This document shows, piece by piece, positions 2,166 to 27,107 of a stretch of DNA of 30,031 bases. This DNA comes from Mucilaginibacter polytrichastri (GTDB taxonomy: Bacteria > Bacteroidota > Bacteroidia > Sphingobacteriales > Sphingobacteriaceae): NCBI RefSeq assembly GCF_001911425.1, contig NZ_MPPL01000002.1, forward strand, positions 48,067 to 78,097, read 5' to 3'. A program made the translations under genes and the position numbers. The notes beneath the pieces were generated by a model. That model saw only the letters and a program-made list of their open reading frames with translations. It did not search any database and was not told where the DNA came from. Positions within the stretch are counted from its first letter, which is position 1. Each line of letters opens with the position of its first letter.

Positions 2166-2180
2166 ATTAAACCCAAGGTG

Positions 2181-2215: not shown

Positions 2216-2453
2216 TTCCTCATTCATCAATAAATTAAGGTTATCCGCTAATAAAAATTCGGGGCTTGCATATCAATAAATTGTATATTTAAACCAGATT
2301 TCAATGACCAATTGACCAGGAATATCCATAAGTCTGGCAGCCAATTTATAAACCTGGTGCAATAGCTGATCTTGCCTGATGGATGATGAAATTTAAATTT
2401 CCCGTAGGGCAGGACCGGATAGTTAAAGAATTAACCGGATTAAAAGTACTAAT

Positions 2454-6425: not shown

Positions 6426-6958
6426 ACATCCGGGCGTAACTGATTGATATTGGGGCATTATCTCCGCATTTCAGATCCCCGGATTGCTTTTAAATGCTAT
6501 AAGGATAGGCTCTCATCCTTAATTTCATCATATGTATTATTTATTTCAACGTGAGTGTTGTCTGCCAACAGTGATTCACCGCTACTTTTACCTCACCTGA
6601 TAGCCAAATAGTCAGGATAACTATAAACCAATTTATTGAACCATAAGATTAATACTGTAGGGCGTTAGGCGCCAAAGTATTAGACTGTATTGATCTATTT
6701 GTTAATTAATTCGTCGAGGATTATCGATTTGTTAAAAAATACGGATTCAGGCCATTTTTTTTGATAAACTGATAATCATGTATTGGTTAACTCATTGTAC
6801 AAACCGGTAATTCAAATAAATCAACAGCTTAACATTTAAATCAAAAGATATGGAAAAATTCAACTAAGCAAGTACCCCCAACCCCAATTATTAACTGTTG
6901 AAAAAACAATAATAATTGAACCATTAACATTTATAAACCAACCATTATAAACAATTTC

Positions 6959-9940: not shown

Positions 9941-9958
9941 CCTATTGAATTAAAAAAA

Positions 9959-11587: not shown

Positions 11588-11614
11588 TTCTCTCCTCACT
11601 ATAATTGGTTTGAA

Positions 11615-11650
11615 GACGGGGCGGCTCTCAACCGCCCTGTCTCTATTTTT
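11615..11650 (+). terminator. Rho-independent terminator after the SusD-like gene
   Basis: GC-rich stem gacggggcgg (11615-11624) / ccgccctgtc (11632-11641, one G-U pair) with a 7-nt loop, followed by tctattttt. Confidence 0.7.
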
Positions 11651-11718
11651 AATACATTAGCTTAGCTATTGATATTGAAGGAGATAATAAGCATTCGACG
11701 AGAATTTTAATTAAAGTA

Positions 11719-13620
11719 ATGATGGAGGAAAAATTAAGACGATTTGCCGAAAATAATACATCTAAAAGCCCGAAACAACAAGCTTTCAAACTCCGTCTAT
11801 TCAAAATTATTGCGGTCATTATTCCGGTTCTGACTCTTGTGTTAATTGAGTTTTGTTTAAGGGCATTCCACTACGGCCATGATACTTCTTTGTTTATTCC
11901 ATACCCGGATGATACTTCTAAACTAGTGATGAACCGGTATGCTTCCGAGCCTTATTTTTCTGATTCAATAAACGCAACTAAAGGTTACATTGAGCCTTTT
12001 GATAAAGTAAAAAAGGCCAATACTTTAAGAATATTCGTCTTGGGCGAGTCAACCGGTGAGGGCTATCCTTATTTTCATAACGGATCATTTCATCGCTGGC
12101 TTCAATACAGGTTAATGCGCGAATTGCCTCAGTCGAATATTGAGATCATTAATTTATCGCTAACGGCAGTAAACTCTTACACCGTTCTTGGTTTTGGGAA
12201 ACAATTAGCTGATTATCATCCCGATGCCATACTGGTGTATGTTGGTCACAACGAATATTACGGGGCTTTGGGTATTGCTTCTACCAGCAGAATAGGCAGC
12301 AACCGGTTTCTCATTAACTGCCTTTTGGCGATGAAGAGATTACGAATTGTACAATGGCTAAACAATATGCTTTCATTACTTAAACCCGCGGCTGGCAGAA
12401 CCAATCAGGATATACGCGAAAACCTGATGAAAAGAATGGCAGGCAAACAACAACTGCCCTATAAAGGAGAAGCTTATAATAAAGGCATCAGACAGTTTAG
12501 CGAAAATCTGACTGAATTATGTAGCTTTTATTCCGGCAAAAAAATCCCGATATTTTTAAGTACTGTATTTAGTAATGAAAAAGATTTAAGCCCGTTTATC
12601 AGTGCTCCAATTGATAGCCCGCTCTCGGCACTTAAAATTTACAACCAAGGTAAAAATGAATATGCCCGCGGCCTGTATACTGATGCTAAAAAAGATTTTA
12701 TACAAGCCAAAGAATTAGATATGTTGCGCTTCCGTGCACCGGAGGCCATGAACCAAATTATTAAAGAAATGGGTAGTCGCTTCAACTTCGTCCATATTGT
12801 TGATTCAAAGGCATTTTATGAACAACATGCCTTACACGGTGTTCTTGGAAACGAAATGCTTTTAGAACATGTACACCCTAATTTATTCGGATACGCGCTG
12901 TTATCAGAGGCCTTCTACCAATCATTAAAAACCCACAAGCTTATCTCGCCCGGTGTAGGCAACCTAATTACGTTCAATGAACTATTGAAGCAAATGCCCA
13001 TTACCAAAATCGATTCATTATTCGGGAGCTACCAAATTATGATGTTAAAATCGGGGTGGCCATTTAACCAAAAGATTGCTAAAGACTTTAAGGTTGGCAA
13101 TAGCCTGTCAGAACGACTGGCGGGGCCGCTTTCGGTAGGAAGTATTACCTGGAGACAGGCCATGGATGACTTGTATAGCCAATCTATGAAAAACAATGAT
13201 GAAGCTGAAGCGCTAAAAGCAACCGAAGCAATAATTCTCGATCAGCCTTTCAAGCCAAGTAATTACCTTTTTGCAGGGAGGCTTGCATTTGATACGGGGC
13301 AGGAAAAAAAAGCAGAATTTTATTTTAAGAAATGCTATGCGTTGGACCCATCACCTAATATTACTGAAAGTTTAATACTTTTCTATATCAAAACCGATCA
13401 GCCGGAAAAAGCTTTGCCCTATTTAAAGGTAATGACCGAAAAGGGCGAGGGCCAAAACCTGATAAACATGCAAGCTATTGTTGACATTTTGGTTAGCGAC
13501 AAAAAGAGCCTTGAAAACCAGCAGTTGAATAAAAAAGAGATAATGTCAAAAATCTCCGCTGATTATTTAAAGCTTGGGGAAAAGAAATTGGCGATGGATT
13601 ATCTAAATGACAAAAAATGA
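11719..13620 (+). CDS. Membrane-anchored SGNH/GDSL-type hydrolase-like protein with C-terminal TPR-like region
   Basis: 633 aa with an N-terminal TM (LFKIIAVIIPVLTLVLIEFCL). SGNH-like blocks are present: IFVLGESTGEGYPY (block I, G-E-S), YVGHNEYYG (block III-like) and LEHVHPNLFGY (block V, xxH). The C-terminal helical repeats look TPR-like (AEFYFKKCYALDPSPN). Its stop overlaps the next start (ATGA at 13617). Confidence 0.65.
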   Translation: MMEEKLRRFAENNTSKSPKQQAFKLRLFKIIAVIIPVLTLVLIEFCLRAFHYGHDTSLFIPYPDDTSKLVMNRYASEPYFSDSINATKGYIEPFDKVKKANTLRIFVLGESTGEGYPYFHNGSFHRWLQYRLMRELPQSNIEIINLSLTAVNSYTVLGFGKQLADYHPDAILVYVGHNEYYGALGIASTSRIGSNRFLINCLLAMKRLRIVQWLNNMLSLLKPAAGRTNQDIRENLMKRMAGKQQLPYKGEAYNKGIRQFSENLTELCSFYSGKKIPIFLSTVFSNEKDLSPFISAPIDSPLSALKIYNQGKNEYARGLYTDAKKDFIQAKELDMLRFRAPEAMNQIIKEMGSRFNFVHIVDSKAFYEQHALHGVLGNEMLLEHVHPNLFGYALLSEAFYQSLKTHKLISPGVGNLITFNELLKQMPITKIDSLFGSYQIMMLKSGWPFNQKIAKDFKVGNSLSERLAGPLSVGSITWRQAMDDLYSQSMKNNDEAEALKATEAIILDQPFKPSNYLFAGRLAFDTGQEKKAEFYFKKCYALDPSPNITESLILFYIKTDQPEKALPYLKVMTEKGEGQNLINMQAIVDILVSDKKSLENQQLNKKEIMSKISADYLKLGEKKLAMDYLNDKK

Positions 13621-14003
13621 ATAAGACCATTAAAAAGAACAGAGATTTTGGCTATGTAGTCGGCGGCTTTTTATTCGCAATATTTGTTTACCGTTATTTT
13701 AAAACAGCCCAATTATCCTGGCCCTATTGCGCGGCATCATTTGCATTACTGTTTACTAGTATAATTATACCCCGATGTTTAACATCATTGCGTTTGCTTT
13801 GGGAGACAATTGGTGAATGGTTAGGTTATGTAAATTCCTTGCTGATACTTACATTAATTTATTTTTTCATAATCACCCCGCTGGGTGTAATTAGTAGATT
13901 ATTAGCAAAAGATCCACTAAAACTAAAGACCGATAAACAGGCAACTACTTATTGGGAGCCTGTTGATTCTAAAATAAAAACTGTTCTGTCACATCAATTT
14001 TAA
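13617..14003 (+). CDS. SxtJ-like small membrane protein
   Basis: 128 aa with three hydrophobic segments. The segment WETIGEWLGYVNSLLILTLIYFFIITPLGVISRLLAKDPLKLK matches my recollection of the SxtJ family, which accompanies carbamoyltransferases. Its position next to a DUF5989-like ORF and a carbamoyltransferase supports the call. Confidence 0.6.
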   Translation: MNKTIKKNRDFGYVVGGFLFAIFVYRYFKTAQLSWPYCAASFALLFTSIIIPRCLTSLRLLWETIGEWLGYVNSLLILTLIYFFIITPLGVISRLLAKDPLKLKTDKQATTYWEPVDSKIKTVLSHQF

Positions 14004-14005
14004 GC

Positions 14006-14155
14006 ATGGAAATACTGATCGAATTTTGTGTTTTTCTTAAACAAAGAAAACGTTATTGGCTTTGGCCTACTATTATATTAATCGTCTTTTTAAGCCTATT
14101 CATAGTTATTGCTCAGTCAACAGCATTATCAACACTAATTTATTCACTCTTTTAG
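14006..14155 (+). CDS. DUF5989/SxtK-like 49-aa membrane peptide (absent from the ORF track, below its length cutoff)
   Basis: The ATG at 14006 translates to MEILIEFCVFLKQRKRYWLWPTIILIVFLSLFIVIAQSTALSTLIYSLF, with a TAG at 14153-14155. It has the basic KxRKRYWLxP motif, one TM and an IYSLF end typical of this family. It fills the gap between the SxtJ-like stop (14003) and the carbamoyltransferase ATG (14158). Confidence 0.6.
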   Translation: MEILIEFCVFLKQRKRYWLWPTIILIVFLSLFIVIAQSTALSTLIYSLF

Positions 14156-14157
14156 TA

Positions 14158-15948
14158 ATGTATATCATTGGTATTTCATGTTTCTACCATGACAGTGCTG
14201 CTTGTATTATAAAAGATGGCGAAATTTTAGCGGCTGTGCAGGAGGAACGTTTTACCAGAATAAAAAATGATGATTCTTTTCCGCAACAATCAATTAAATA
14301 CTGTTTGGAGTATTGTCAAATTGATTTAGGGGTAATAGCATATTTTGTCTTTTATGAAAAACCTTTTCTAAAATTTGAGCGAATACTCGAAACTTTTACA
14401 GCAACCTCACCACTTGGCTTTATTCAGTATTTAAAGGGAATGCCCATTTGGGTAAAGGATAAATTGTTCATGAAACGTACATTGCTGAGAAATATTCAGG
14501 CAATATCCCCCGATAGTACAATTAAGAAAGAACAATTATTATTCAGTGAGCATCACTTGTCACACATAGCATCCGCATATTATCCTTCCCCATTTAACGA
14601 TGCCGTAATTTTAACACTAGATGGGGTGGGCGAATGGGCAACCACATCTGTTGCATTGGGCGAAAACGGAAAAATATCGCCACAATTTGAAATACGTTTC
14701 CCCCACTCGCTCGGATTGCTGTACTCGGCATTTACCCATTATCTTGGATTTAAAGTAAATTGTGACGAGTTTAAGGTGATGGGGCTTGCACCTTACGGCA
14801 ACCCGGCCTATAAAAATATAATCCTCGAAAAGTTAATCGATGTGCAGGAAGATGGATCATTCCATCTCAACATGACTTATTTCAACTTCCTGAATGGCCT
14901 GAAAATGACCAATGGCCGTTTCGAAAAACTATTTGGGGCCAAAAGACGAAAGCCTTCTGAGACTATTTTACAATTTCATATGGATATTGCCAAATCAATC
15001 CAGGAGGTGACGGAAGATGTGATATTGAAAATTGCCATTACTTTACGAAAAAAATATCGTTCCACTAATTTGTGCCTTGCGGGTGGTGTTGCCCTTAATT
15101 GCGTAGCTAATGGTTTGTTGTTAAAAGAAAGTGGCTTCGAAAATATTTGGATACAACCGGCAGCTGGTGATGCCGGGGGGGCTTTGGGCGCTGCTTTGTA
15201 TGCCTATCACGATTTGACAGATAGCAAACGTGAATTAGGTTTACAAAGAAATGATTACATGAAATGCAGTCTTTTAGGCCCGGAATATACAAAGGAGCAG
15301 ATAATAGCTATTCTTGATAAACAAAATATCTGCTATCATCTTTATGATGACGAGGATTTCTTCCCCAAATTGTCGTCCCTTTTAGTAGATGGTAATGTAG
15401 CAGGATGGTTTTCAGGCAGGATGGAGTTTGGTCCGCGAGCACTTGGCAGCAGAAGTATTATTGCGGACGCACGAAGCATTAGTATGCAGACAATAATCAA
15501 CAAAAAAATAAAATTCCGGGAGTCTTTCCGGCCATTTGCTCCAGCGGTGCTTGAAGCACACGCTGATGAATACTTTGAGCTTGATTGCAAGAGTCCGTAC
15601 ATGTTATTTACCGCACCAGTGGCGAAAAGTAAAAGAATTATTAAAATTGAAACTGCTGCATCGGGATTTGATAAGCTTAAGATTAGCCGTTCGGTAATCC
15701 CTGCCGTAACGCATGTTGATTATTCTGCCCGTATCCAAACCGTTAGTCCGGCAAACGGCGACTTTTATACACTTATCGACAGTTTCTATAAGCTAACTGG
15801 TTGCCCACTGCTCATAAATACCTCTTTTAATGTTATGGATGAACCTATTGTCTGCAATCCTGATGATGCTTTAAAGTGCTTCCTGGATACAGAAATGGAT
15901 ATTTTAGCATTCAAAAATATTATAATTTATAAATGTGAGAATAGATAA
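14158..15948 (+). CDS. NodU/CmcH-family carbamoyltransferase (SxtI-like)
   Basis: The canonical family N-terminus MYIIGISCFYHDSAACIIKDGEILAAVQEERFTRIKND begins at the ATG at 14158, which is residue 35 of the track ORF 14056..15948. Further family blocks are SEHHLSHIASAYY, LAGGVALNCVAN, GPRALGSRSI, FRPFAP and NTSFN. The track's alternative start at 14056 would overlap the DUF5989-like ORF. Confidence 0.9.
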   Translation: MYIIGISCFYHDSAACIIKDGEILAAVQEERFTRIKNDDSFPQQSIKYCLEYCQIDLGVIAYFVFYEKPFLKFERILETFTATSPLGFIQYLKGMPIWVKDKLFMKRTLLRNIQAISPDSTIKKEQLLFSEHHLSHIASAYYPSPFNDAVILTLDGVGEWATTSVALGENGKISPQFEIRFPHSLGLLYSAFTHYLGFKVNCDEFKVMGLAPYGNPAYKNIILEKLIDVQEDGSFHLNMTYFNFLNGLKMTNGRFEKLFGAKRRKPSETILQFHMDIAKSIQEVTEDVILKIAITLRKKYRSTNLCLAGGVALNCVANGLLLKESGFENIWIQPAAGDAGGALGAALYAYHDLTDSKRELGLQRNDYMKCSLLGPEYTKEQIIAILDKQNICYHLYDDEDFFPKLSSLLVDGNVAGWFSGRMEFGPRALGSRSIIADARSISMQTIINKKIKFRESFRPFAPAVLEAHADEYFELDCKSPYMLFTAPVAKSKRIIKIETAASGFDKLKISRSVIPAVTHVDYSARIQTVSPANGDFYTLIDSFYKLTGCPLLINTSFNVMDEPIVCNPDDALKCFLDTEMDILAFKNIIIYKCENR

Positions 15949-16674
15949 CCACGATCCACTGTGAAGGAATTGGTAGTAAATAACCTTAGCAAAAAGTACA
16001 AAAGTACGCTGTATTACGAAAGCCTAATGGTATTACTAAATGTCACCCCTTTAGTTAATCCTTACACAAAATTGCTTTACTCAGTGTATGCGCATAGTTT
16101 GTTACAAGCAAAAATGCTTTCTGACAATTAAAAAGCAATATTATCCAACAAGCTAAGCGTATTGCATATTTATCTGCATGATAGCAAATCCGCGCTTCCC
16201 CTACAAAAGGAATTTTACGTCTGAAAAGTAAGTTACATCACCAATTCCTGAGCAATTGCCTTACGGATGTTGAGGTTTTTTGAGTTGATGGTCATAAATA
16301 TGATTTAAAAGATTTCTCGCTATATCTTAGGAAACTCTACTGATATCAAAATAAAAAAGTGCATTAGAGCGCGTGATTTTAGTCAGCTAAGTTGTTATCA
16401 ATTCTACTGCCTCGTCGGTCTGTTTTTGTAAGGTCGGCATATCTTCAAGTTTAAGGTACTACAAAATAGTCAACACTAAAGATATAGCTTCCGGTTGCGA
16501 CTGCAATGGCCGTCTTATATGATTTTAATGTGATTAAAGTTAGATACGCCCAAGATAAATAATGCAGCCTTTGGTATGTATATTTTATTTATAAAAAATG
16601 GGCTAATATTTATTGCAATATTTTTTTTTAATCATAAGTAGTTGTATATTAGACCATACCTAACTTATTCCGCA

Positions 16675-16995
16675 ATGGCAAACCTTAAAATTGAACTCAA
16701 GGGCGAAGGAACGATCGACAACGCAGCGATATTCATAGATGACCCGCTAGAAAAATTACCCCATTCTTTACAGAAAGACGATGATACGTCCTGGTCGCTG
16801 GATGACGTCAGTATTCCGATGTCACCTGGGGATGACCTGACTTATACCCTCTATGTGGTCGCCTTCTCGGGTACTAAATTCAGTTGTGTAATAACTGATA
16901 AAGGCAGCGGCGGGACGATTAGCTTTTCGGACGTGACCGGCAAACAGATCAAGAATCGTGCGATCAGCAAAGGTGATAAACCATTCAGCGAATGA
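16675..16995 (+). CDS. Hypothetical small soluble protein, first gene of the island operon
   Basis: The first ATG (MANLKIELKGEG...) is at 16675 within the 16642..16995 ORF. It has no signal peptide and is acidic and beta-rich by eye. Its stop overlaps the next start (ATGA at 16992). I recognise no family. Confidence 0.5.
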   Translation: MANLKIELKGEGTIDNAAIFIDDPLEKLPHSLQKDDDTSWSLDDVSIPMSPGDDLTYTLYVVAFSGTKFSCVITDKGSGGTISFSDVTGKQIKNRAISKGDKPFSE

Positions 16996-17936
16996 GAAAG
17001 GTCCCTTTATTGTTCGTTCTGGTGTTGGGCACCGGGACGATCACTTACGCACAGACTTCTGTATTTCAGGATGGTAAAGGGGAGTCAGCTTATAAATTAC
17101 TCGGCAATGCGGTCAGTGTAAATACCGGTGACAAAAGTCTTGCGGCAACGCTGAAGGGGAAAGACGAGGTTTCTCAAAATAACACTCATTTTAATTCCTG
17201 GGCGATGAATGTCAACCTGGCAGCTAGCGATGGCTCGTCCGCGCTGAAATCAGATGATGGCTTTTTATTTAACGGAAGTATTGGTGCCAGCCGGATATGG
17301 AAACGCGTTGCTCCCGCGGTTGGCAATACCGATGCTTGGACGAACGCCTGGTACATCAACGGGAATTTTTTAGTGGAGCGCAACAAATTGTATGACCTGA
17401 GCCTTGCCAAGGACAAAGTATTTGATCAGGGCAACGCAGGTTGGAAATTTGCAGCGGGCAGAAGCGGTTATTCAGGTGATCATCTATGGGGTTACGAATT
17501 GAACCTGGGGCAAGCTACCAACGCAAAAGACATCAAGCAGACCACTGTCAGTACGATCCAGTCAGGCGGTACTGATTCCATCAAACTGGAAAAGCAGCAA
17601 TCTGCTTACGCGACCAGCGTTTTTCAGGGCACTCAATTCAATGTACAGCTCAACGCGGATTACGCGTGGGCGCTGACTGCCAAAAAAGCAGCAAACAATG
17701 CAGATGTTCCGGCGCTGTATTTGGCTGGCCTTTTCCGTAGCAAATTCTTTCAGCTAAGCAAACCCCAGATCAATCCCGCTATAGGACTTTATATCGCCAA
17801 CCCTGGTAAGCCTCAAAGTATTTCGGCTGGATTCAACGTACAGGAGTCTGACTTGTTCAACGTACTGCATGCAAAAGACAGTTCGGTAGGCAAACGGATC
17901 GGAATTAGTTTCACGGCTGGTTTTAGTATCGATTAA
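16992..17936 (+). CDS. Secreted protein of unknown function, possibly an outer-membrane beta-barrel
   Basis: 314 aa with a clear signal peptide (MRKVPLLFVLVLGTGTITYAQTS). Alternating amphipathic stretches are present (YINGNFLV, GYELNLGQ, FNVQLNADYAWAL, IGLYIAN, GISFTAGFSID). The barrel call is inference only. Confidence 0.55.
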   Translation: MRKVPLLFVLVLGTGTITYAQTSVFQDGKGESAYKLLGNAVSVNTGDKSLAATLKGKDEVSQNNTHFNSWAMNVNLAASDGSSALKSDDGFLFNGSIGASRIWKRVAPAVGNTDAWTNAWYINGNFLVERNKLYDLSLAKDKVFDQGNAGWKFAAGRSGYSGDHLWGYELNLGQATNAKDIKQTTVSTIQSGGTDSIKLEKQQSAYATSVFQGTQFNVQLNADYAWALTAKKAANNADVPALYLAGLFRSKFFQLSKPQINPAIGLYIANPGKPQSISAGFNVQESDLFNVLHAKDSSVGKRIGISFTAGFSID

Positions 17937-17952
17937 CTTAAAAAAAAACTAT

Positions 17953-18561
17953 ATGAACCCTATCGCTTGTTTTTGGATCGTTTTTGTAGTGATCCTTTTG
18001 GCTCTCGTTTTATTGGAAGTGAAATATCATTTGTTAAAAGATATCGGGCGCCCGCCCGCGACGACACCGGAAGACGCGGTGCCAAATAAAAAAGATGTGA
18101 CCTACAGTTGGTCCAGAGTGCAGCTAGCTTGGTGGACGCTGATCATACTCAGCGCTTTTACCACAATACTGCTAATCGACAGGGAAGCGCCGGACTTGGC
18201 AACCTCCACACTGATTCTGATCGGCATCAGCACGGCTACGATTGCCACTGCCCGCTCAATAGATGTCAACGATCAGGATAAACTGCAAAAATTACCGGGT
18301 CAAAACAGCCAGGGGCTGTTGATCGATATTTTGTCTGATCAGACCGGTGTCAGCATCCCCCGTTTTCAGAACGTAGTATTTAATGTGATCTTCGGGATAT
18401 GGTTCGTCGGGGAAGTACTACATCACTTGGTACAACTACCGGGTGGCGGCATAAACGCGATCATGCCGGACATTTCCACCAATAACCTGATTTTGCTGGG
18501 CCTGAGTTCGGCGACTTATGCAGCATTGAAAACGACAGAGAATAACTCCGCAACGAAATGA
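17953..18561 (+). CDS. Polytopic inner-membrane protein of unknown function
   Basis: 202 aa with about five hydrophobic helices (IACFWIVFVVILLALVLLEV, LAWWTLIILSAFTTILLI, LILIGISTATIATA, VVFNVIFGIWFVGEVL, LILLGLSSATYAAL). Its stop overlaps the nuclease start (ATGA at 18558). Confidence 0.6.
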   Translation: MNPIACFWIVFVVILLALVLLEVKYHLLKDIGRPPATTPEDAVPNKKDVTYSWSRVQLAWWTLIILSAFTTILLIDREAPDLATSTLILIGISTATIATARSIDVNDQDKLQKLPGQNSQGLLIDILSDQTGVSIPRFQNVVFNVIFGIWFVGEVLHHLVQLPGGGINAIMPDISTNNLILLGLSSATYAALKTTENNSATK

Positions 18562-19217
18562 AGATCAAGAGTAATCTTTTGCTAGCGGTAGCCGGTGCCG
18601 CCGCTGCAGTCGGGGTTAACCAGCGCTTTACGACGAGCCTGCCTTCCGAAATAACCGTCCCGCATCATCATTATACGACTTATTATGACGTCACCAGTCA
18701 CGAGGCGGATTCGGTCAGTTGGAACCTCGCACCAGAAATGTTAGGGTGTACCGATAAGCCCAAGCGGAAAGACCTATTTGGACAGGACCCGCAAATACCA
18801 GATACCTATAAGCTTAAGGACAACTACATCAACTCAGGCTATGATAAAGGACATTTGTTCAATTATGAGGATGCTTCCTGCGATAGTACCGACCGGGTCG
18901 AATGTTTCTATATGAGCAATATGCTGCCGCAGCCTCACTATCTCAATGCCGGAAAATGGAAGACGTTGGAAGAGCAGTGCCGCAAGTGGGCACAAACACA
19001 AAAACTGCACATCATTGCCGGAGGGATCGGCCGGATCAAAACGATAGGTTCAGGGCAGGTTACAGTTCCGCAATATTGCTACAAGGCCATTTTAATGAAT
19101 GGAATTTATCAATGTTGGCTTTTTCCCAACGACAAAAAACTTCCTGCCGAAATCCCGCTCGACTCCTGCAAAATTAGCACGGCAGCATTAGATCAAAAAA
19201 CCGGGTTAAAACTTTGA
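18558..19217 (+). CDS. DNA/RNA non-specific endonuclease (NucA / Serratia-nuclease, beta-beta-alpha-Me family), exported or anchored
   Basis: 219 aa with an N-terminal hydrophobic signal or anchor (LLLAVAGAAAAVGV). It has the family signature SGYDKGHLFNYEDAS (compare DRGH; His99 codon at 18852-18854). That is followed by FYMSNMLPQPHYLNAGKWKTLEEQ (compare N-x-x-PQ ... N-x-G-x-W-x-x-LE). Confidence 0.8.
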   Translation: MKIKSNLLLAVAGAAAAVGVNQRFTTSLPSEITVPHHHYTTYYDVTSHEADSVSWNLAPEMLGCTDKPKRKDLFGQDPQIPDTYKLKDNYINSGYDKGHLFNYEDASCDSTDRVECFYMSNMLPQPHYLNAGKWKTLEEQCRKWAQTQKLHIIAGGIGRIKTIGSGQVTVPQYCYKAILMNGIYQCWLFPNDKKLPAEIPLDSCKISTAALDQKTGLKL

Positions 19218-19218
19218 T

Positions 19219-19710
19219 ATGGCTAGCAAAGAACAATTTGAGTTTTTCAAGACGCTTTATGTCGAAGAAAGCGCTCGTTATACCGAGTTGACTAAGAAAG
19301 CAGAAGTATACTTTTCAGTGATTTCTTTGTTCCTGTCGGCCGTGCTGTTTAAAATCAAAGATATTTTTGACAGCGCGAACGGCTTACACAACAAGGTATT
19401 ACTCCTCTTTTTTTGTGTAGGACTTCTTTCGCTTGGGATCGCGCTTTTTCTGTTACTTTTTTCCCTTAAGATCAGGGTTTATGAAGGCGTAACCGACCTG
19501 GATGAATTCGTCGCCAAAAATGACCAAACCACACAGAACGATGAAGAGTTCTTTCAGGACCGGGTGGCAGATTATATTGTTGCCATCAGGCGGAACGAAG
19601 CGCAAAACGATCAGAGGGCAGGCCAATTAGCGTTAACCGGTTATTTTATCTTAGCTGGCCTGCTGTTCACCATCACTTTTATCATTTATTTCTTTATTTT
19701 AAAAATGTAG
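19219..19710 (+). CDS. Small 3-TM membrane protein of unknown function
   Basis: 163 aa, starting 1 nt after the nuclease stop (ttTGAtATGg). It has an N-terminal helix, TM1 (VYFSVISLFLSAVLF), TM2 (VLLLFFCVGLLSLGIALFLLLFSL), a soluble stretch of about 50 aa, and a C-terminal TM (LTGYFILAGLLFTITFIIYFFIL). Confidence 0.6.
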   Translation: MASKEQFEFFKTLYVEESARYTELTKKAEVYFSVISLFLSAVLFKIKDIFDSANGLHNKVLLLFFCVGLLSLGIALFLLLFSLKIRVYEGVTDLDEFVAKNDQTTQNDEEFFQDRVADYIVAIRRNEAQNDQRAGQLALTGYFILAGLLFTITFIIYFFILKM

Positions 19711-19714
19711 TATC

Positions 19715-19840
19715 ATGAGTAAAAAAGATAAGAAAGACAAAGCAGGAAAAGATCAACGGAAAGAAAAAGATAAGCCGAAATCACCATCGCTATCGGAGTC
19801 TGTCAAGCAAAGAGAAGGTAAAACAATCGGTAAGAAATAG
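19715..19840 (+). CDS. 41-aa lysine-rich micro-ORF (not in the ORF track)
   Basis: The ATG at 19715 translates to MSKKDKKDKAGKDQRKEKDKPKSPSLSESVKQREGKTIGKK, with a TAG at 19838-19840. It fills the 133-nt gap between flanking genes almost exactly, starting 4 nt after the upstream stop and ending 3-6 nt before the next start. Its low complexity keeps coding status uncertain. Confidence 0.4.
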   Translation: MSKKDKKDKAGKDQRKEKDKPKSPSLSESVKQREGKTIGKK

Positions 19841-19843
19841 TTT

Positions 19844-20392
19844 GTGATGAAATTAAATTCGACTGAAAACCGTTACGAAACCAATCTGCTTAACACTTCA
19901 AATTTAATGGCTGCTGGAACAGCACAATTAGTTTCCATTAAGATCAGGCCCATTGATTCGCTGCCTCATAGCGATGAGGATGAGTTTTGTGACGCTTATG
20001 TCTATCCAGACGAGTACCAAAACTTCAGAGATTTTTTGTCAGCGGAAAGATTAATAGCGACAGGATTAGTCAACCAGGGACAAACCGTGCGTTATGCAAA
20101 TGTGAATGGCGAGGATTATCTTTTCGTTGAACATGAGACCGGCCCGGAGATCATTGCGGCACTGGCTTTGATCACATCCTCGCTAACTTTAGGAAAATCG
20201 ATTGTCGACCTGATCACAACCATTATCAAAACGGTCAGCGAGTCGGGCGAGAAAAAGAGAAAGGGAGAACCGAGTGGTCGTTATCAGGCAGCGAAGGCCA
20301 TCACGATTGAAAACGTACGGAGAAGGAAACCAAAATCCTTAAGGTCATTCAATTACCTGCCGCCGGAGATGAGATCAAGCTCGAAGAACTGA
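19844..20392 (+). CDS. Hypothetical protein
   Basis: 182 aa. The start is either the GTG at 19844 or the adjacent ATG at 19847. It has one hydrophobic helix (PEIIAALALITSSLTLGKSIVDLITTII) and a basic tail. I recognise no family. Confidence 0.5.
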   Translation: MMKLNSTENRYETNLLNTSNLMAAGTAQLVSIKIRPIDSLPHSDEDEFCDAYVYPDEYQNFRDFLSAERLIATGLVNQGQTVRYANVNGEDYLFVEHETGPEIIAALALITSSLTLGKSIVDLITTIIKTVSESGEKKRKGEPSGRYQAAKAITIENVRRRKPKSLRSFNYLPPEMRSSSKN

Positions 20393-20445
20393 AAAAGCTA
20401 CTAGATGAACTTTAACAAGCACCCATTCAACCTCAATTTAAAACA

Positions 20446-21297
20446 ATGACTACTACCGCCGCTCCCGAGCCCCATATTCAACAACCTGACCTTAAAACCA
20501 TCGACTGGATTCTCATCGTTGTTGTGATGCTCGTACTGGGTTTGGCGGGCTTTACTTTATATCAAAATCTGCATTCCCAAGATCAAGTGTACGATAAGGT
20601 GATCGCGCAATTCATGAACGCGAAAGACACGTCGACCTCTTCCGCAGCGGTTTTGGCTTTTTCCCGTGCGCGAGATTTTGCCAATATGAAAGCGGCTAGT
20701 ATGTTGGTTGGCTTTCTGCTGATCTTTACAGGTGCCTTATTTCTACTGAAGATTTTTGCCTTGTCTTATCACCTTAAAGCTGATAAAACACCGGCGGGTA
20801 GTTTCAGTTTGGAAAGTTCGTCGCCTGGGTTGGTGATGATCACCCTCGGGGTTGCGATCATGAGTGTCGTATTGTTGACGAAAACGGAAGTCGGCCTGGA
20901 AACTGAAACAAGGCCTGACATCGAAGCAGTGTTAAAAAGAATAGATAGCCTGGAAACAGCGTGCGCTTCGGCCAACTCATCAAAACCAGCCGACAAATCT
21001 CCGAATCAAAAAGCGACTGAAACGACACTGACTGATAGTGTTCATTTAAAGAAAGGCCTGACGCATCAGCAACTGGACCAATTGGTACGGCATCTTCAGT
21101 CTGATGCTAGTTTGAAAGTCCGGTTAACTGCGCCAGGAGGCGATATGGCCAGTAGAAACCTGATCAATGCGATCCGCTTGCAATTGCTTAACGCGGGTAT
21201 TGCCTTAACGCGCATCAAAGTGACCAGCTACGGCGAAACGCACCCGCAAGCGGAAACAAGTGGGCAGCCCGGCATCCTTCTTCAAATCATCAAATAA
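20446..21297 (+). CDS. Membrane protein with C-terminal OmpA/MotB-like (peptidoglycan-binding-like) domain
   Basis: 283 aa with three TM segments (IDWILIVVVMLVLGLAGFTLY, MLVGFLLIFTGALFLLKIFAL, PGLVMITLGVAIMSVVLL). The C-terminus VRLTAPGGDMASRNLINAIRLQLLNAGIALTRIKVTSYGETHP resembles the OmpA_C pattern (x-x-G-x-x-D ... N-x-x-L-S-x-x-R-A ... G-I ... R-I ... G-Y-G-E-x-x-P), but it is divergent. Confidence 0.55.
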   Translation: MTTTAAPEPHIQQPDLKTIDWILIVVVMLVLGLAGFTLYQNLHSQDQVYDKVIAQFMNAKDTSTSSAAVLAFSRARDFANMKAASMLVGFLLIFTGALFLLKIFALSYHLKADKTPAGSFSLESSSPGLVMITLGVAIMSVVLLTKTEVGLETETRPDIEAVLKRIDSLETACASANSSKPADKSPNQKATETTLTDSVHLKKGLTHQQLDQLVRHLQSDASLKVRLTAPGGDMASRNLINAIRLQLLNAGIALTRIKVTSYGETHPQAETSGQPGILLQIIK

Positions 21298-21336
21298 CTT
21301 ACAATTGCTAATTTTTTTTAGTGATTTTATACTCTT

Positions 21337-22341
21337 ATGGAAGTAAAACAGTTCATTATTCATAAGCTGGAGAAACAATCCGGTTTTAACGCCAAAAAAA
21401 CAGAACGTAAGGCACCGGTGGCGATCACCCAGCTTCATGCAGATTTCATGTCCCAGGTAAAGGATGTTTATTACAAAAAATCCAATCCGATATACGGCGT
21501 CTTTGACAGCGCAGCAGCGAGTTATCCTTATCAGACGTTTTTAGATAGCTATTTGAAGGGCAATCTGGCTTTTTCTGCTTTCACCAGTAAGGCGCTCGGG
21601 CATTTCGAGAAGATCATTAATGAGGTGACCCAGGCTACAGGTGGTTACGTGCTATTTTGCCACTTTATAACTACCGAAGATTTTATGGCGGTGATCGTTC
21701 TCAACGACAAAGAAAGCTACTTGGTCGGCGACGACCTTGACCTGAAATCTGATTTTAGTCTGGATATCGAAAAATTGGATGTGGCCAATTTTTCCAATTG
21801 CGCCAAATGGAATAATAACGAAGATGTCTATTTATCTTTTACCCGTGGAAAAAAAGACGTTTCTAATTACTTTAAAAAATTTATCGGCTGTACCGACTAT
21901 ACCTCGGCTAAAGAATCGTCGGAGAAATTAAAAAAGGCCCTTAGCGATTTTCTGATTGGTCAAGGTTTGGATAAGGAAAGGATCGAAGCCATCAAAAGCG
22001 AGGTCTTTACCTATTGTGAACAGCGAATGAAAAATAAAGAAGATATCAGTCTCAACACGGTATCTTCAATCGTTAATCAGGATGACCCCGAATTGTTTAA
22101 AGAATTTGCCGCTTCAGAGGCCTATGAGGTGAGCAGCGTGTTTAAGGGACATGCAACGCTAAAGAGCCTCCGTTATTATTCTTTTAAAAGCCAGGAACTT
22201 ACCATCGTCTTTGACAGCAAACTATTGGACCATAAAGTGATTTTTGACGCGGGTTCAAATGAATTGCTAATCAAGGAAGTACCTGAAAAATTACGCGCCC
22301 AATTGAACAGACAAGCGCCTGCTGCTGAAACCAATGAATAA
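21337..22341 (+). CDS. NdpA/YejK-family nucleoid-associated protein homologue
   Basis: 334 aa. From memory it aligns along its length with E. coli YejK: IIHKLEK versus ALHQLIK, IYGVF versus AYGLF, GGYVLFCHF versus GGFVLFCHY, and YLSFTRGKKDVSNYFKKFIG versus [22 protein letters not shown]. The C-terminus also matches, LLIKEVPEKLRAQLNRQ versus LTIKGTPPNLRDQLQRR. Confidence 0.88.
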   Translation: MEVKQFIIHKLEKQSGFNAKKTERKAPVAITQLHADFMSQVKDVYYKKSNPIYGVFDSAAASYPYQTFLDSYLKGNLAFSAFTSKALGHFEKIINEVTQATGGYVLFCHFITTEDFMAVIVLNDKESYLVGDDLDLKSDFSLDIEKLDVANFSNCAKWNNNEDVYLSFTRGKKDVSNYFKKFIGCTDYTSAKESSEKLKKALSDFLIGQGLDKERIEAIKSEVFTYCEQRMKNKEDISLNTVSSIVNQDDPELFKEFAASEAYEVSSVFKGHATLKSLRYYSFKSQELTIVFDSKLLDHKVIFDAGSNELLIKEVPEKLRAQLNRQAPAAETNE

Positions 22342-23518
22342 CGATACCCTCCATATAATCGCAGAGATTCGCCAAAAGCTGAATGACATGGCTTATGATA
22401 GTGGCGAATTGTCTGGAAATATTGTTTTGGATGAGACAGTCATCCCGCAGTTGATCTTGCTGAGTGAAGCCGGTGTGATAGAAGATATGTTGCCGGCCGA
22501 GGGTACGACAATAGCTGTAAAGTTGCTGCAGGCCGGCCAAACGGTTGCCCTAACCATTTATGCTAAACAACTTTCACGAGGGATTTATTACGATTCTGTA
22601 GCGGAGTTTGTAAAAGGCAACCCCGGGACGCTGCCGGCGCAGGCATTTTATATTGCGGATATCGCTTATTTTTCAGATCAAGGCCTATCAGTTCCTGCGA
22701 TGGCGCAGTTTGCTGATATCGCCCGCTTAATTAGCTTATTGACCGAACTTTCGGATTATATACAAACAGGACTTGGTAAAAACAGGACGCTGATCTTTTT
22801 TCAGAAAAAGAAGTTGAATGTTCCTTTGACTTTTGACAGTAGCCAGCTTCGTGAGATTCCTTATCTCGACAAGTTGGAATCGCAACTTCACGAAGCGCAC
22901 GACAAAGAAGAACGCAAAACGATTTTTAAGACCGAATTAGTCAGCAGTTTACAGGAGGTCCCGGCTGCCGAGGTTTTTGACCGGTTGCTGTCCGATCTCG
23001 ACCAGATCTACGAACACTACCTGCAGAGTCACCTGCTTTACCTGGAAAAATTTTCTTACCAAGATCTTAAAGCGGCAGTAGACAAAGACCAGCTTGAATA
23101 CACCAAAAAGATATACAATACTGTCAATGATATTCAAAGCAAACTCATCGCTGTGCCGGCCGCTTTTCTGCTTATCTTTGCGCAATTTGATTTTACCGGT
23201 GCCCAACTATTCAAAAATGTCCTGATTTTTATCGGTGCAGTGCTGTTCGCCATTTTAATCGACATCTTGCTCCGTAACCAATTTGGCGTGTTAAGCTATA
23301 TCCGTACAGAGCTCGAAAGCTTGAAAACCAATCTCAAAAATAAGGATACCCAAGTCGATCTATCCGCTTTCATCACTTCCTTCGCCGGACTTGAACCCAT
23401 CATGGCCAAGCAACGCAATTACCTTTTGTTTTTCCGGCTCATTACCTGGCTTGTGCCAGCAGTTACGTTCATCATGCTCTTGATCTTTACGCATACAAAA
23501 GTAGCAACAGCCCACTAA
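22334..23518 (+). CDS. Hypothetical protein with soluble N-terminal region and C-terminal 3-TM anchor
   Basis: 394 aa. Its start overlaps the NdpA-like stop by 8 nt (AATGAATAA). The C-terminal helices are LIAVPAAFLLIFAQF, VLIFIGAVLFAILIDILL and LLFFRLITWLVPAVTFIMLLIF. I recognise no family. Confidence 0.6.
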   Translation: MNNDTLHIIAEIRQKLNDMAYDSGELSGNIVLDETVIPQLILLSEAGVIEDMLPAEGTTIAVKLLQAGQTVALTIYAKQLSRGIYYDSVAEFVKGNPGTLPAQAFYIADIAYFSDQGLSVPAMAQFADIARLISLLTELSDYIQTGLGKNRTLIFFQKKKLNVPLTFDSSQLREIPYLDKLESQLHEAHDKEERKTIFKTELVSSLQEVPAAEVFDRLLSDLDQIYEHYLQSHLLYLEKFSYQDLKAAVDKDQLEYTKKIYNTVNDIQSKLIAVPAAFLLIFAQFDFTGAQLFKNVLIFIGAVLFAILIDILLRNQFGVLSYIRTELESLKTNLKNKDTQVDLSAFITSFAGLEPIMAKQRNYLLFFRLITWLVPAVTFIMLLIFTHTKVATAH

Positions 23519-23524
23519 ACCGAG

Positions 23525-23859
23525 CTATCTTTTTCGTTTACTGGGCCCATATCTTTTATCACTTTCATATCGGTCACGCGCGATTAAAACTGGGTAGGTA
23601 GCAAGTTTTTTGTTACCTAACATCTGGCCGACGATTTCGATGGATACGCCGTTGGTCAAGGTAACCTTCGTGGCGAAGGTGTGGGGTAGGCCAGGTGTTT
23701 GATGATGATGGCTTTATCGGCGATAAGCTTTAAGTAGGCGTTAGCTTTAGGTTACTGATGCATGGTATGGGTTCGTCTTCGGGGCGCGGGAATGTCAGTG
23801 CTGATCATAAAACAACCATCTTCATGCTCCCATTCGATATACTCAGTTTGATGCTCACT
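23525..23859 (-). pseudogene. Decayed tyrosine recombinase (Bacteroidota-type integrase) C-terminal remnant
   Basis: The minus-strand translation gives fragments ...EYIEWEHEDGCFMISTDIPAP..., ...NAYLKLIADKAIIIKHLAYP and HTFATKVTLTNGVSIEIVGQMLGN.... These match the conserved integrase blocks (NaYLKeIa..., lTxHxaRHTFAT, NGVsIExVsxMLGH). They are interrupted by a stop (TAA) and at least two frame changes. The N-terminal half is missing. Confidence 0.7.
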
Positions 23860-23913: not shown

Positions 23914-23953
23914 AATGGCAATTGGCAGAATATGCCCATATTCTGCCAATTGC
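23914..23953. repeat. Near-perfect hairpin / inverted repeat built on GCCAATTGC
   Basis: gcaattggcagaatatg (23918-23934) and catattctgccaattgc (23937-23953) are exact reverse complements separated by cc. The 13-mer aatggcaattggc (23914-23926) recurs as its exact reverse complement at 24037-24049. Confidence 0.7.
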
Positions 23954-24605: not shown

Positions 24606-24902
24606 ATGGAAAAGCAATTAACGTTATCAGCAAAAGCGAGGTTTGATGCCAAGATCCCAAAAGTTCAAAAAGAACTATTTGAATATGCTGCCAGTCTTGG
24701 GGGATTTCGCACACTGACCGATTTTATTATTAATGCGGTACAGGAAAAGGCAAGTGCCATTATTCAGGAACACAATACCATTATTGCATCTGAAAAGGAC
24801 CGGGAGATATTTTTTAATGCCCTAATGAATCCATCCGGGCCAAATCAGAAACTAAAGGACGCAGCCGAAAAGTATAAATTGTTTATTCGAGAGAATAAAT
24901 GA
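24606..24902 (+). CDS. DUF1778-family (TacA-like, RHH) type II antitoxin
   Basis: 98 aa. The pattern ARFDAKIPKVQKELFEYAASLGGFRTLTDFIINAVQEKASAIIQEH...SEKDREIFFNALMNP is typical of DUF1778 antitoxins. Its stop overlaps the GNAT toxin start (ATGA at 24899). Confidence 0.88.
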   Translation: MEKQLTLSAKARFDAKIPKVQKELFEYAASLGGFRTLTDFIINAVQEKASAIIQEHNTIIASEKDREIFFNALMNPSGPNQKLKDAAEKYKLFIRENK

Positions 24903-25399
24903 GCGATAAAATAGAACTGCTGAACTCCGCGCTAAATAAAAAGGATTTCAGTTGCGGTAAGGAAATGCTGGATAATTACCTGCATACCCAGGCAAGTCAG
25001 GACGTTAAACGTAAGTTATGCGTTGTATTTGCGCTGTTTGAGGATACAAGTATTAAAGGTTATTATACACTTTCCAATGCTTCGGTGCCTGCCGCATTCA
25101 TGCCCGAAGCGGTCAAAAAAAAGATGCCGCGATCTTATGAGGCGCTTCCCGTTACCTTATTAGGGAGGCTGGCCGTCGATTCCAAATTCAAGGGACATGG
25201 ATTTGGGGGAATTCTGTTATTGGATGCCTTAAAAAGAAGCTTTGACATTGCCAGTCAAAGTTTGGGATCAATCGGTGTAGTGGTGGATCCTTTAGATGAC
25301 GATGCCGTAGCTTTTTATCAAAAGTTCGGCTTTGTTCTTTTGCCCGATAGCGGCAAAATGTTCCTTCCTATGGCTGATATTGCTCAACTAGCGTTATAG
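24899..25399 (+). CDS. GNAT-family acetyltransferase toxin (TacT/AtaT/KacT-like)
   Basis: 166 aa. It has FSCGKEMLDNYLHTQASQD, GYYTLSNASV, LLGRLAVDSKFKGHGFGGILLLDAL and AFYQKFGF, the characteristic blocks of GNAT toxins paired with DUF1778. Confidence 0.88.
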   Translation: MSDKIELLNSALNKKDFSCGKEMLDNYLHTQASQDVKRKLCVVFALFEDTSIKGYYTLSNASVPAAFMPEAVKKKMPRSYEALPVTLLGRLAVDSKFKGHGFGGILLLDALKRSFDIASQSLGSIGVVVDPLDDDAVAFYQKFGFVLLPDSGKMFLPMADIAQLAL

Positions 25400-25575: not shown

Positions 25576-26187
25576 ATGTTACGCTACTTTCTGGAATACC
25601 ACTTATTTCTACCGGTATTTAGATTTGATAATTACAACGGGCATCCTTATACTTTTAGACATTTTATCACTAACGTTTTCTTCTATTACTTCCCGTCTTA
25701 CTTTGTTTATGGCCTGATATATTTCTTCGTTTCGGGCTGGTATAAAACCAAGCAGCATCAGCAAGAACTTGAAAAGGAAAATACCGCGGCCGAGCTCAAT
25801 TTCCTGCGCTCGCAGGTCAACCCGCATTTCCTTTTCAATAGTATTAATGATATTTATTCACTGACCTATCAGCAATCGGTACAAGCGCCGGCCGCATTAT
25901 TAAAACTTCTAAAATCCTGCGTTACATGCTGCGAAGGTAAAGCGGATACGATGCCGCTACAAAACGAAGTGACTTACCTGGAAAATGTAATTGAACTTCA
26001 ACGGATCAGCGCGAAAGGCCAGGCTTTTATTAATTTTACGGTGGAGGGCTACATTGAAACGCAAATAATCGCTACGATGCTGTTGGTTGCTTTTGTCGAA
26101 AATGCATTTAAACACGGTGTGATAACAAATCCTGAGCACCCGATAGTAATTCATTACTTGCGCAGCCACCTCACCTCATTGCAGTAA
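25576..26187 (+). pseudogene. LytS/YehU-type sensor histidine kinase remnant (His_kinase domain only; scrambled and truncated)
   Basis: The signature LNFLRSQVNPHFLFNSIN and the later block FVENAFKHGV are present. The conserved ILRYML(YE) block is encoded out of frame (atc ctg cgt tac atg ctg at 25914-25931), flanked by compensating indels. The ORF stops before any ATPase (N/G-box) region, and no LytTR partner follows. Confidence 0.65.
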
Positions 26188-26492: not shown

Positions 26493-27107
26493 TTAATTTG
26501 CCCCTGCACTACGTTTATTGCTTATTTCTGCGATTTGTTCCTGAACATAAAGTGTACTTTCCTCCAACCTGGTCCATATTTCAAAAATGGTATCATTGTG
26601 CAATATTTCCTTAACCTTCAATAGGTTATTGAAAGCACCCATCCCTCTTTCATGTTTATTGCATTCAACTATTATTTGCCCTCCGACGGTAAGGATTTGT
26701 GGCCGTTTATTGATTGCAGTTAAAAAACTAAGATAATGTTCTCTTGTATAGGGCGGGGCAGAAAAGATGACATCAAAAGTCTCGTCAACTCTTTTGATAA
26801 ATTTTATAGTATCAAGATTATGTATTTTGGAATTATTAAGTTCATTACATAGTTCAATATTCTTGTGTAATACGCTATAAGCGAAGTAATTGATCTCCAC
26901 AAAGGTTACATTCCTGCATTCCCTGCTGAGAGCCTCTAATCCAATTGCCCCTGTACCGGCGTAAAGATCTAATACTCTTTTATCAGCAATATCATTTCCC
27001 AGGAAGCCAAAGAGGCGCTCTTTAGCTTTATTGGTAATGGGCCTAGTCCTTGATCGTGATGACCCGTGTAACTTTATGCCTTTATACTTTCCAGAAACGA
27101 TTCTCAT
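26493..27107 (-). CDS. RsmD-like (Cons_hypoth95 family) SAM-dependent methyltransferase with atypical motif IV
   Basis: 204 aa. The N-terminus MRIVSGKYKGIKL...TRPITNKAKERLFGFL and SAM motif I VLDLYAGTGAIGLEALSR match the RsmD family. Motif IV reads FSAPPY (codons at 26748-26762) instead of DPPY/DPPF. Its start overlaps the stop of the upstream TIR-HAD gene (ATGA at 27104-27107). Confidence 0.78.
   Translation of the reverse strand: MRIVSGKYKGIKLHGSSRSRTRPITNKAKERLFGFLGNDIADKRVLDLYAGTGAIGLEALSRECRNVTFVEINYFAYSVLHKNIELCNELNNSKIHNLDTIKFIKRVDETFDVIFSAPPYTREHYLSFLTAINKRPQILTVGGQIIVECNKHERGMGAFNNLLKVKEILHNDTIFEIWTRLEESTLYVQEQIAEISNKRSAGAN

Follow-up and report, generated by a model that had tools for sequence, protein, structure and literature searches.

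A ten-gene block of Mucilaginibacter polytrichastri consists of four recurring modules, the last probably a distant relative of DS-1 and type II PANGU

DS-1 is a replicated, phage-protective two-gene unit of Escherichia coli (D390) that came from DefensePredictor, and its first protein is a NA37 protein of 391 amino acids (aa) (PMC13092281). PANGU systems consist of a YejK-like nucleoid-associated protein (NAP) and an effector, and a PANGU operon is defined by a partner gene located less than 40 bp from the NAP gene (Li et al., bioRxiv 10.64898/2026.04.06.716658). In type II PANGU, the NAP Pag2A is paired with Pag2B, which joins an acidic, DNA-mimicking N-terminal domain to a C-terminal transmembrane (TM) domain. 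Neither gene is dispensable, infected cells show abortive infection, and once phage T4 degrades the host DNA the NAP moves off the nucleoid (10.64898/2026.04.06.716658). The same work equates Cluster 2 of the NAP operons with type II PANGU and already reports its spread across phyla, with a sporadic presence in Bacteroidota. Here we describe a block of ten genes, g1 to g10 (Table 1), in Mucilaginibacter polytrichastri that ends in such a pair. The window analysed comprises 30,031 nucleotides (nt) of contig NZ_MPPL01000002.1 (positions 48,067 to 78,097, forward strand), and all coordinates are those of the window unless a related locus is named. A first-pass annotation, made from the sequence alone, had proposed that the block is one tightly coupled operon and a candidate undescribed defence or conflict system. 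We consider it probable that the block is instead a horizontally acquired island of four self-contained modules, the last of which is a distant relative of DS-1 and type II PANGU.

The g9-g10 pair and its accessory g8

Pfam searches confirmed the two families recognised at the outset, NA37/YejK in g9 (1.1e-56) and Endonuclease_NS in g4 (8.5e-33). The g9 protein also aligned with the solved YejK structure 9be2 (5e-39). Against the NCBIfam YejK model (NF001557) it scored 223.2 bits, and because this lies under the equivalog cut-off of 341, g9 is a YejK-family paralogue, not the housekeeping orthologue. In searches with the DS-1 models (NCBIfam release June 2026), g9 matched DS1_1_antiphage (NF053868, 'nucleoid-associated anti-phage protein'; 1.2e-24, 87.0 bits, profile positions 65-319 of 369) and g10 matched DS1_2_antiphage (NF053869; 3.2e-19, 69.3 bits, profile positions 53-285 of 337). 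The locus shares with DS-1 a significant match of both proteins to both models and the same gene order; it differs in protein length, g9 having 334 aa compared to 391 aa for DS-1A, and g10 having 394 aa compared to the 337 positions of the DS1_2 profile. These matches upheld the proposal of a defence-type system built round an NdpA/YejK-like protein. The further claim that the system is undescribed held only in part: a PADLOC v2 search with all ten proteins returned nothing beyond a chance-level Csm3 match, but the g9-g10 core was described in 2025-26 as DS-1 and type II PANGU.

The second protein of the pair, g10, matched phrog_5023 (1.9e-43). Its residues 1-270 are acidic (isoelectric point, pI, 4.78; 39 D/E versus 25 K/R; net charge -14), and three TM-like segments lie within residues 267-385. 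The AlphaFold2 (AF2) model (pLDDT 85) combined an alpha/beta domain with a helical region and had long helices at residues 273-393, and its comparison with the PDB using Foldseek gave no significant match (best E = 0.24). When the locus was set beside type II PANGU, the same arrangement was observed, with a YejK-like NAP first, an effector second, close spacing (an 8-nt overlap of g9 and g10), and a C-terminal TM domain in the second protein. The 'DMK' domain of type II PANGU is acidic, DNA-mimicking, and NAP-binding; the first 270 residues of g10 are acidic by composition, and the N-domain of the model consists of alpha/beta plus helices. Both also cross phyla and follow defence genes and mobile elements. 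The locus differs by g8, an extra upstream gene for a membrane/OmpA-like protein, a component that the preprint text consulted does not mention for type II. By homology and architecture, g9 would be a Pag2A/DS-1A-like sensor and g10 a Pag2B/DS-1B-like membrane effector, and the pair can be placed tentatively, on its sequence, as a distant Bacteroidota branch of DS-1/type II PANGU.

We considered that the pair should function in a way analogous to type II PANGU. The g9 protein would be bound to the chromosome and freed when a phage degrades the host DNA; the freed g9 would be captured by the acidic, DNA-mimicking N-domain of g10, and the three TM helices at the C-terminus of the effector would then damage the membrane, so that the infection is aborted. 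In this sublineage only, the pair would be joined by g8, a further membrane protein whose OmpA-like end would bind peptidoglycan. Such a system would place the NAP-sensed abortive infection of PANGU and DS-1 in soil Bacteroidota, with g8 as a lineage-specific third membrane component.

The distribution of g10 is patchy, with 30 homologues at 43-66% identity in 5.8 billion proteins. In all eight loci found via g10 (L002-L009) the g9 and g10 homologues were adjacent, and g1-g7 were present in none of the eight, two of which (L006, L007) have recovered sequence that is truncated just upstream. The 8-nt overlap was kept in L002-L005, L009, and the Sinorhizobium phage phi2LM21. In Ilyomonas (L004, L005) the genes on either side of the pair are on the opposite strand, which makes it an autonomous cassette. 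Elsewhere, its context included an integrase and an MmeI-type restriction-modification (RM) system (L008, Mucilaginibacter angelicae), a KAP NTPase, HepT/MNT, and an integrase fragment (L009), or a downstream FRG-like gene that was read by eye (L003). Proteobacterial pairs were found in phage phi2LM21, on a Methylobacter plasmid, where an AAA ATPase and a helicase adjoin, in an Acinetobacter prophage, and in a Klebsiella phage; these phage, plasmid, and prophage pairs showed the same double DS-1 match, all below the thresholds. A viral-contig scan with the g10 alignment yielded no relatives.

YejK-type proteins are general nucleoid proteins, and phages and plasmids, on which the pair is found, are elements for which the organisation of DNA is important. 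Both facts would also fit a mobile-element housekeeping pair, in which the NAP and a membrane tether organise or segregate DNA, while the upstream genes, for an exported nuclease and an outer-membrane protein, serve ordinary envelope functions or the scavenging of nutrient DNA. Exported Endonuclease_NS proteins, with Serratia nuclease and Anabaena NucA as examples, are classically extracellular or scavenging enzymes, and a polysaccharide-utilisation locus occupies the left flank; both count for this explanation. We nevertheless regard it as unlikely: in experiments, homologous pairs gave E. coli protection against phages that needed both genes and took the form of abortive infection, the spread of close g10 homologues is patchy, the pair associates with RM, KAP NTPase, toxin-antitoxin (TA), and integrase genes, and g9 falls under the YejK equivalog cut-off.

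Kinship with DS-1 and type II PANGU has points against it as well. The DS-1 scores are far under the equivalog cut-offs, at about a quarter of them (87 versus 330 bits for g9 and 69 versus 315 bits for g10), and the likeness to DS-1 is at the level of the superfamily, not of the equivalog. The likeness to Pag2A and Pag2B is one of described architecture, for which the DS-1 models serve as a proxy of sequence homology. The published protection data come from E. coli systems, not from Bacteroidota members, and how Pag2B becomes activated is unknown even in E. coli (10.64898/2026.04.06.716658).

Two further observations concern related pairs. In the M. angelicae locus L002, an ORF (open reading frame) of 178 aa (11178-11714 of that locus) starts 2 nt after the g10 homologue and looks PD-(D/E)xK-like by eye (D...E-M-K); possibly it supplies the NAP pair of that locus with an additional nuclease. 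A NAP plus g10-like pair was also found in E. coli, in 37 of the 5426 complete genomes, with about 76% DNA identity to the pair of Klebsiella phage Kp4865-4. In RefSeq the two genes of the E. coli pair are labelled 'nucleoid-associated protein' and 'hypothetical protein', and because of these labels we take the pair to be unrecognised as anti-phage and distinct from DS-1 itself.

Only in the two closest relatives, L002 and L008 of M. angelicae, did a g8 homologue (40% identity) directly precede the NAP pair; in L008 the g8 homologue comes right after the integrase, and in other loci g7 was not upstream of g8 homologues. The g8 gene is a lineage-specific accessory of the NAP pair. Its product probably modulates or anchors the effector, and it offers an entry point to how the NAP activates the membrane effector. 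An OmpA/MotB-like end had been read in one protein of the block. This was recovered at the level of the g8 family, in which 7 of 10 relatives matched Pfam OmpA (PF00691), one of them above the 27.2-bit threshold (32.8 bits); the window copy itself gave weak matches to Pal, PdsO, and CpaD (E 0.008-0.04). Saf_2TM, a SAVED-fused 2TM effector domain, was matched below threshold by 2 of 10 family members, and the AF2 model of g8 was poor (pLDDT 50). Zorya was rejected as an identification, as there is no ZorA/MotA-like partner gene and PADLOC gave no Zorya match. Like ZorB, g8 joins TM helices to an OmpA-like C-terminal domain; unlike ZorB, it has three TM segments, not one, and its TM core is weakly Saf_2TM-like.

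A distant g8 clade (about 33% identity) ends unrelated plus-strand operons of other defence-like islands (L097-L099), in which no NAP and none of g1-g7 were present. These operons contain genes for FRG, SLATT_2, metallophosphatase, LysM-CHAP, and trypsin-like protease proteins, adjoin AbiGi, type ISP RM, and NERD genes, and may be further conflict systems that share the g8 module. A family of multi-TM proteins of 340-380 aa with the motif LVASAGFLG.MI...SWLLWY.(V/I)KPF was also seen in L097 (3582-4601), L045 (3612-4745), and L099 (1443-2591). Its gene lies directly upstream of a g3 homologue in L045 and inside the g8-terminated operon in L097, which hints at a pool of membrane components shared by the g3 and g8 islands.

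Modular composition of the ten-gene block

Neighbourhoods were sampled through five genes (8 loci via g10, 83 via g3, 3 further via g8, 1 via g2, and 2 via g5), with 1-3 contexts each for the g5, g7, g2, and g8 families. Among the more than 90 neighbourhoods sampled, no locus outside the source genome mixed members of different modules. The block consists of four modules, each recurring without the others: g1-g2, g3-g4, g5-g6(-g7), and g8-g9-g10. In the 83 g3 loci, the only gene of the window that co-occurred was g4, in two loci (L010, L013) that carry the closest g3 relatives (about 80% identical); the g3-g4 pair (74% identity) was accompanied there by no other window gene, and in L010 it stands free between opposite-strand genes. 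The first-pass annotation had itself named a lack of co-occurrence outside this lineage as evidence that would tell against its proposal, and this is what the neighbourhoods showed for the ten-gene set. As the modules were not combined in any of the loci sampled, the ten genes as one system are largely refuted. The nuclease, which had been counted as part of the NAP system, belongs instead to a separate two-gene module with g3.

Table 1 Features of the ten-gene block and its flanks in the window.
Feature	Coordinates	Strand	Length	Description	Module
g1	16642/16675-16995	+	117 aa from TTG 16642; 106 aa from ATG 16675
g2	16992-17936	+	314 aa	exported, signal peptide (MRKVPLLFVLVLGTGTITYA/Q), beta-rich	module 1, gene 2
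g3	17953-18561	+	202 aa	conserved 4-5 TM membrane protein	module 2, gene 1
g4	18558-19217	+	219 aa	DNA/RNA non-specific beta-beta-alpha-Me endonuclease	module 2, cargo
g5	19219-19710	+	163 aa	3-TM protein of an uncharacterised, sizeable family	module 3, gene 1
g6	19715-19840	+	41 aa	Lys/Glu-rich small ORF
g7	19844/19847-20392	+	182 aa (181 aa from ATG 19847)	one hydrophobic helix
g8	20446-21297	+	283 aa	inner-membrane protein; conserved 3-TM core plus divergent OmpA-like C-terminal domain
g9	21337-22341	+	334 aa	YejK/NA37-type NAP
g10	22334-23518	+	394 aa	acidic N-domain plus three C-terminal TM helices
Left flank	60-15948			GH31 glycosidase, hybrid two-component regulator (propeller, histidine kinase, response regulator, AraC), SusC/SusD pair
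Left flank, further genes	60-15948			GDSL-lipase/TPR protein, SxtJ, carbamoyltransferase
Tyrosine recombinase C-terminal fragment	23525-23690	-		degenerate; translation HTFATKVTLTNGVSIEIVGQMLGNKKLATY; stop codons upstream; abuts the g10 3' end
TacAT-like TA pair	24606-25399	+	98 aa; 166 aa	TacA1-type antitoxin (98 aa) overlapping GNAT acetyltransferase toxin (166 aa)
TIR_2 plus HAD-phosphatase fusion	26493-28378 (with the following gene)	-	424 aa	PADLOC SpbK 6.6e-31, ThsB weakly
Methyltransferase	26493-28378 (with the preceding gene)	-	204 aa	overlaps the TIR-HAD gene; PADLOC mad2 5.3e-21

All ten plus-strand ORFs reported for 16642-23518, the 41-aa one included, were present there, and the junctions were reproduced as described: ATGA at 16992 and 18558, TGAtATG at 19215-19221, and the 8-nt overlap at 22334-22341, with the remaining intergenic gaps measuring 3-53 nt. 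The start of g1 is more likely ATG 16675, matching the public gene call (106 aa). Hydrophobicity analysis revealed four hydrophobic segments in g3, three each in g5, g8, and g10, and one in g7, together with signal-like N-termini in g2 and g4; this agrees with the prediction of at least six envelope products besides the two recognised proteins (g2, g3, g5, g7, g8, and g10 as membrane or exported proteins), to which g4 can be added. The G+C content was indeed higher in the block than in the rest of the window (0.448 versus 0.405), although the difference is modest only, and the genes at 60-6425 are close to the block value at about 0.43. At third codon positions, the G+C content (GC3) was 0.46-0.57 in the block (0.33 in g6) compared to 0.34-0.47 in the near flanks. 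Scans of the block for sigma-70 promoters, terminators, and the Bacteroidetes TAnnTTTG motif gave signals that did not exceed chance and thus did not delimit any transcription units. The argument that dense packing marks one unit is weakened, since the housekeeping neighbours in the window are equally dense.

The ten genes could still be viewed as one novel envelope-spanning defence or conflict machine, with the nuclease as effector, the NAP as sensor, and the membrane and OmpA-like proteins as scaffold. Their shared strand, their overlaps or short gaps (none above 53 nt), the uniformly raised GC3, the lack of internal promoters or terminators above chance, and the defence-island setting all speak for such a machine. 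Set against this, the modules were uncombined outside the source genome in the neighbourhoods sampled via the five genes, they occur alone, between opposite-strand genes, or beside unrelated genes, and the NAP pair suffices for defence in published systems, and we therefore consider a single machine very improbable. Some of the same features do weigh against independent cassettes: the GC3 raised uniformly across g1-g10 fits co-transcription of all ten genes, and the internal scans fit one ten-gene transcript. In addition, a nuclease-type gene precedes g5 in the window as well as in L101, which could mean that g4 and g5 are coupled, and functional cross-talk between modules in the source genome is conceivable. 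The simplest reading is one acquired island whose cassettes accreted on one strand and may be co-transcribed here. What looks convincingly like an operon of ten genes can thus have accreted from independent cassettes, and dense packing on one strand argues weakly for one system.

The g3-g4, g1-g2, and g5-g6-g7 modules

The g3 family has more than 348 homologues, with the invariant motifs YSWSRVQLAWW, DILSD..GVS..RFQ, and LLGLSSATYAALKTTEN. In 47 loci with a close downstream partner, the partner was an Amidase_2(+SH3) protein in 29 and an M15 peptidase in 2, and an export signal was found in 0 of these 31 hydrolases. Four of the 47 partners had a lipobox and a C-terminal hydrophobic segment and were Lambda Bor-like by Pfam; they look like unimolecular spanins. 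The partner was an eCIS-core toxin in one locus and a nuclease in two. Because a membrane protein preceding a signal-less endolysin is the signature of a holin-endolysin cassette, g3 is putatively holin-like. Its neighbourhood suggests that g3 may be a holin-like gate and g4 an alternative cargo, and the g3-g4 module would be derived from lysis or release cassettes, in which a g3-type protein normally precedes a signal-less endolysin. Three points weigh against a holin: g3, with about 200 aa and 4-5 TM segments, is larger than classical holins, searches against Pfam and PHROG assigned it to no known holin family, and the suggestion draws on gene neighbourhood.

Several observations on the g3 loci are of a more general kind. 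Among L010-L092, the arrangement of a g3-type gene followed 2-30 nt on by a signal-less Amidase_2(+SH3) or M15 gene was widespread in Bacteroidota. The spanin-like partner had 113 aa in some g3 loci, the partner in L019 was an eCIS-core/kinase-like toxin, and most g3 loci looked non-prophage (L011, L012).

Type 10 secretion systems are non-lytic derivatives of holin-endolysin cassettes (PMC9527704). In common with holin/endolysin cassettes and type 10 secretion (Serratia ChiW/ChiX; PMC9527704, PMC10109510), the g3 family shows a multi-TM gene before a signal-less hydrolase gene, spanin-like lipoproteins in some loci, and, in the g3-g4 pair, an exported enzyme as cargo. The module of the window differs in having no endolysin and in that g4 has its own signal or signal-arrest-release (SAR)-like N-terminus. 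This Gly/Ala-rich N-terminus of g4 was kept in L010 and L013. The nuclease assignment of g4 is clear, with 114 bits to Pfam Endonuclease_NS (PF01223) against a cut-off of 23; the nearest solved structure was Anabaena NucA (1e-15), and EXOG, EndoG, and Serratia nuclease also aligned. When aligned to NucA, the catalytic motifs of g4 were intact (DKGH, SNMLPQ, and the downstream Glu in LEE).

The ATGA and TGAtATG coupling along g3-g4-g5 would also fit a nuclease-based conflict module for abortive infection or competition, in which g3 and g5 act as membrane gate or immunity; the island would then comprise two or more defence systems besides the unknowns. In keeping with this, g5 lies behind a nuclease-superfamily (HKD) gene again in L101, g3 relatives are paired with toxic enzymes, the eCIS-core toxin among them, and the g3 of Mucilaginibacter gracilis lies near patatin and bpX genes. 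The explanation is improbable all the same: g5 is not beside g3-g4 in L010 and L013, g3 partners are by far most often endolysin-like, which points to lysis or release rather than immunity, and g5 has one independent extra context, with no PADLOC match. An immunity role for g3 was rejected on its own account, because amidases, peptidases, and a nuclease cannot all be specific targets of a single conserved inhibitor.

The modules g1-g2, g3-g4, and g5-g7 are compact and recur near genes of defence and of mobile elements; of the three, the most tractable lead is offered by the g3 family, whose enzyme cargos are swappable. The remaining novelty lies in these three unassigned modules, chiefly in the g3 family, with the g8 add-on as a possible variant. 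It is possible, if rather doubtful, that at least one unassigned module represents a new kind of system, the best candidate being the g3 family as a generic gate for swappable toxic cargos (an undescribed holin-like release or abortive-infection platform), and that g8 makes the NAP pair the first three-component, peptidoglycan-anchored, NAP-sensed variant.

The g1-g2 and g5-g6-g7 groups are independent cassettes that are functionally unassigned, and Pfam scans of the g1, g2, and g7 families gave nothing informative. The g1 protein is small, acidic, and beta-rich, with about 5 representative homologues in an exhaustive HMMER search; HMMER searches gave about 17 for g2 (283-321 aa), more than 100 for g5 (about 160 aa), and about 13 for g7. 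In L100, a g1 homologue (65% identity) is located directly upstream of a g2 homologue, and this pair is on its own there, with opposite-strand genes and a C5 DNA methyltransferase behind it. A 1236-aa protein (P0226) contained 16 stretches matching a concatenated g1+g2+g5+g7 query, best at g1 residues 55-81, which suggests that g1 corresponds to a single copy of a repeat module. The g2 protein is possibly an outer-membrane protein; it had no match in Pfam, in the PDB, or, by tblastn, on plasmids.

The g5 protein matched phrog_23273 (1.2e-5), and Pfam 8xMP was weakly matched by 7 of 50 g5 relatives. No g5 relatives were found in a viral-contig scan with the single sequence and a narrow alignment, or by tblastn against phages, and profile-profile comparison revealed no relation of the g5 family to the g10 and g8 families. 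A NuiA-like nuclease inhibitor was rejected for g5, which is a TM protein and has no similarity to NuiA. In L101 and L102, a g5 homologue (57%) comes after an HKD-motif gene and before a g6-like charged ORF located 3-4 nt further on, the spacing seen between g5 and g6. The two loci are from different samples, and because this ORF recurs behind the g5 homologue, g6 is probably real. In L101 the HKD-motif gene (2-445, HHKMVVLD...GSSNF) stops 8 nt short of the g5 homologue; the HKD motif is the signature of PLD-family nucleases and phospholipases. The g7 family has the conserved motif EHE(T/S)GPEI; for g7 there was no domain, no phage relative in a viral-contig alignment scan, and no plasmid match by tblastn, and the gene is placed in module 3 by position only.

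Flanks and island setting

The 0.7-kb non-coding gap described to the left of the block is real (15949-16673, G+C 0.34). Beyond it, the left flank is housekeeping-like, a polysaccharide-utilisation locus beside a carbamoylation cluster. To the right, the TA pair and the TIR gene were both borne out, and the SpbK-like TIR gene, the mad2-like methylase, and the TacAT pair adjoining the block justify the description of the setting as defence-island-like. The TacA/GNAT pair had no PADLOC match; the TIR-HAD and methyltransferase genes may form a separate defence module of the right flank. Between the TA pair and this TIR module, a plus-strand ORF of 203 aa (25576-26187) contains a His_kinase domain (LytS-type) alone (3e-15) and looks truncated or orphaned.

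The integrase remnant reported at the right edge could be followed in part. In the translation HTFATKVTLTNGVSIEIVGQMLGNKKLATY a motif is readable that we take, from knowledge of the family, to be the box II-like end of a tyrosine recombinase with its catalytic Tyr, whereas Pfam, and tblastn with intact integrases, did not detect the remnant. This putative degraded recombinase is a possible island boundary. Neither a tRNA nor a convincing pair of flanking direct repeats was found to mark the island ends. A 1.1-kb non-coding stretch 3' of the block contains a perfect 17-nt inverted repeat at 23918-23953 (GCAATTGGCAGAATATG / CATATTCTGCCAATTGC, with a 2-nt loop), which scored as terminator-like on the minus strand.

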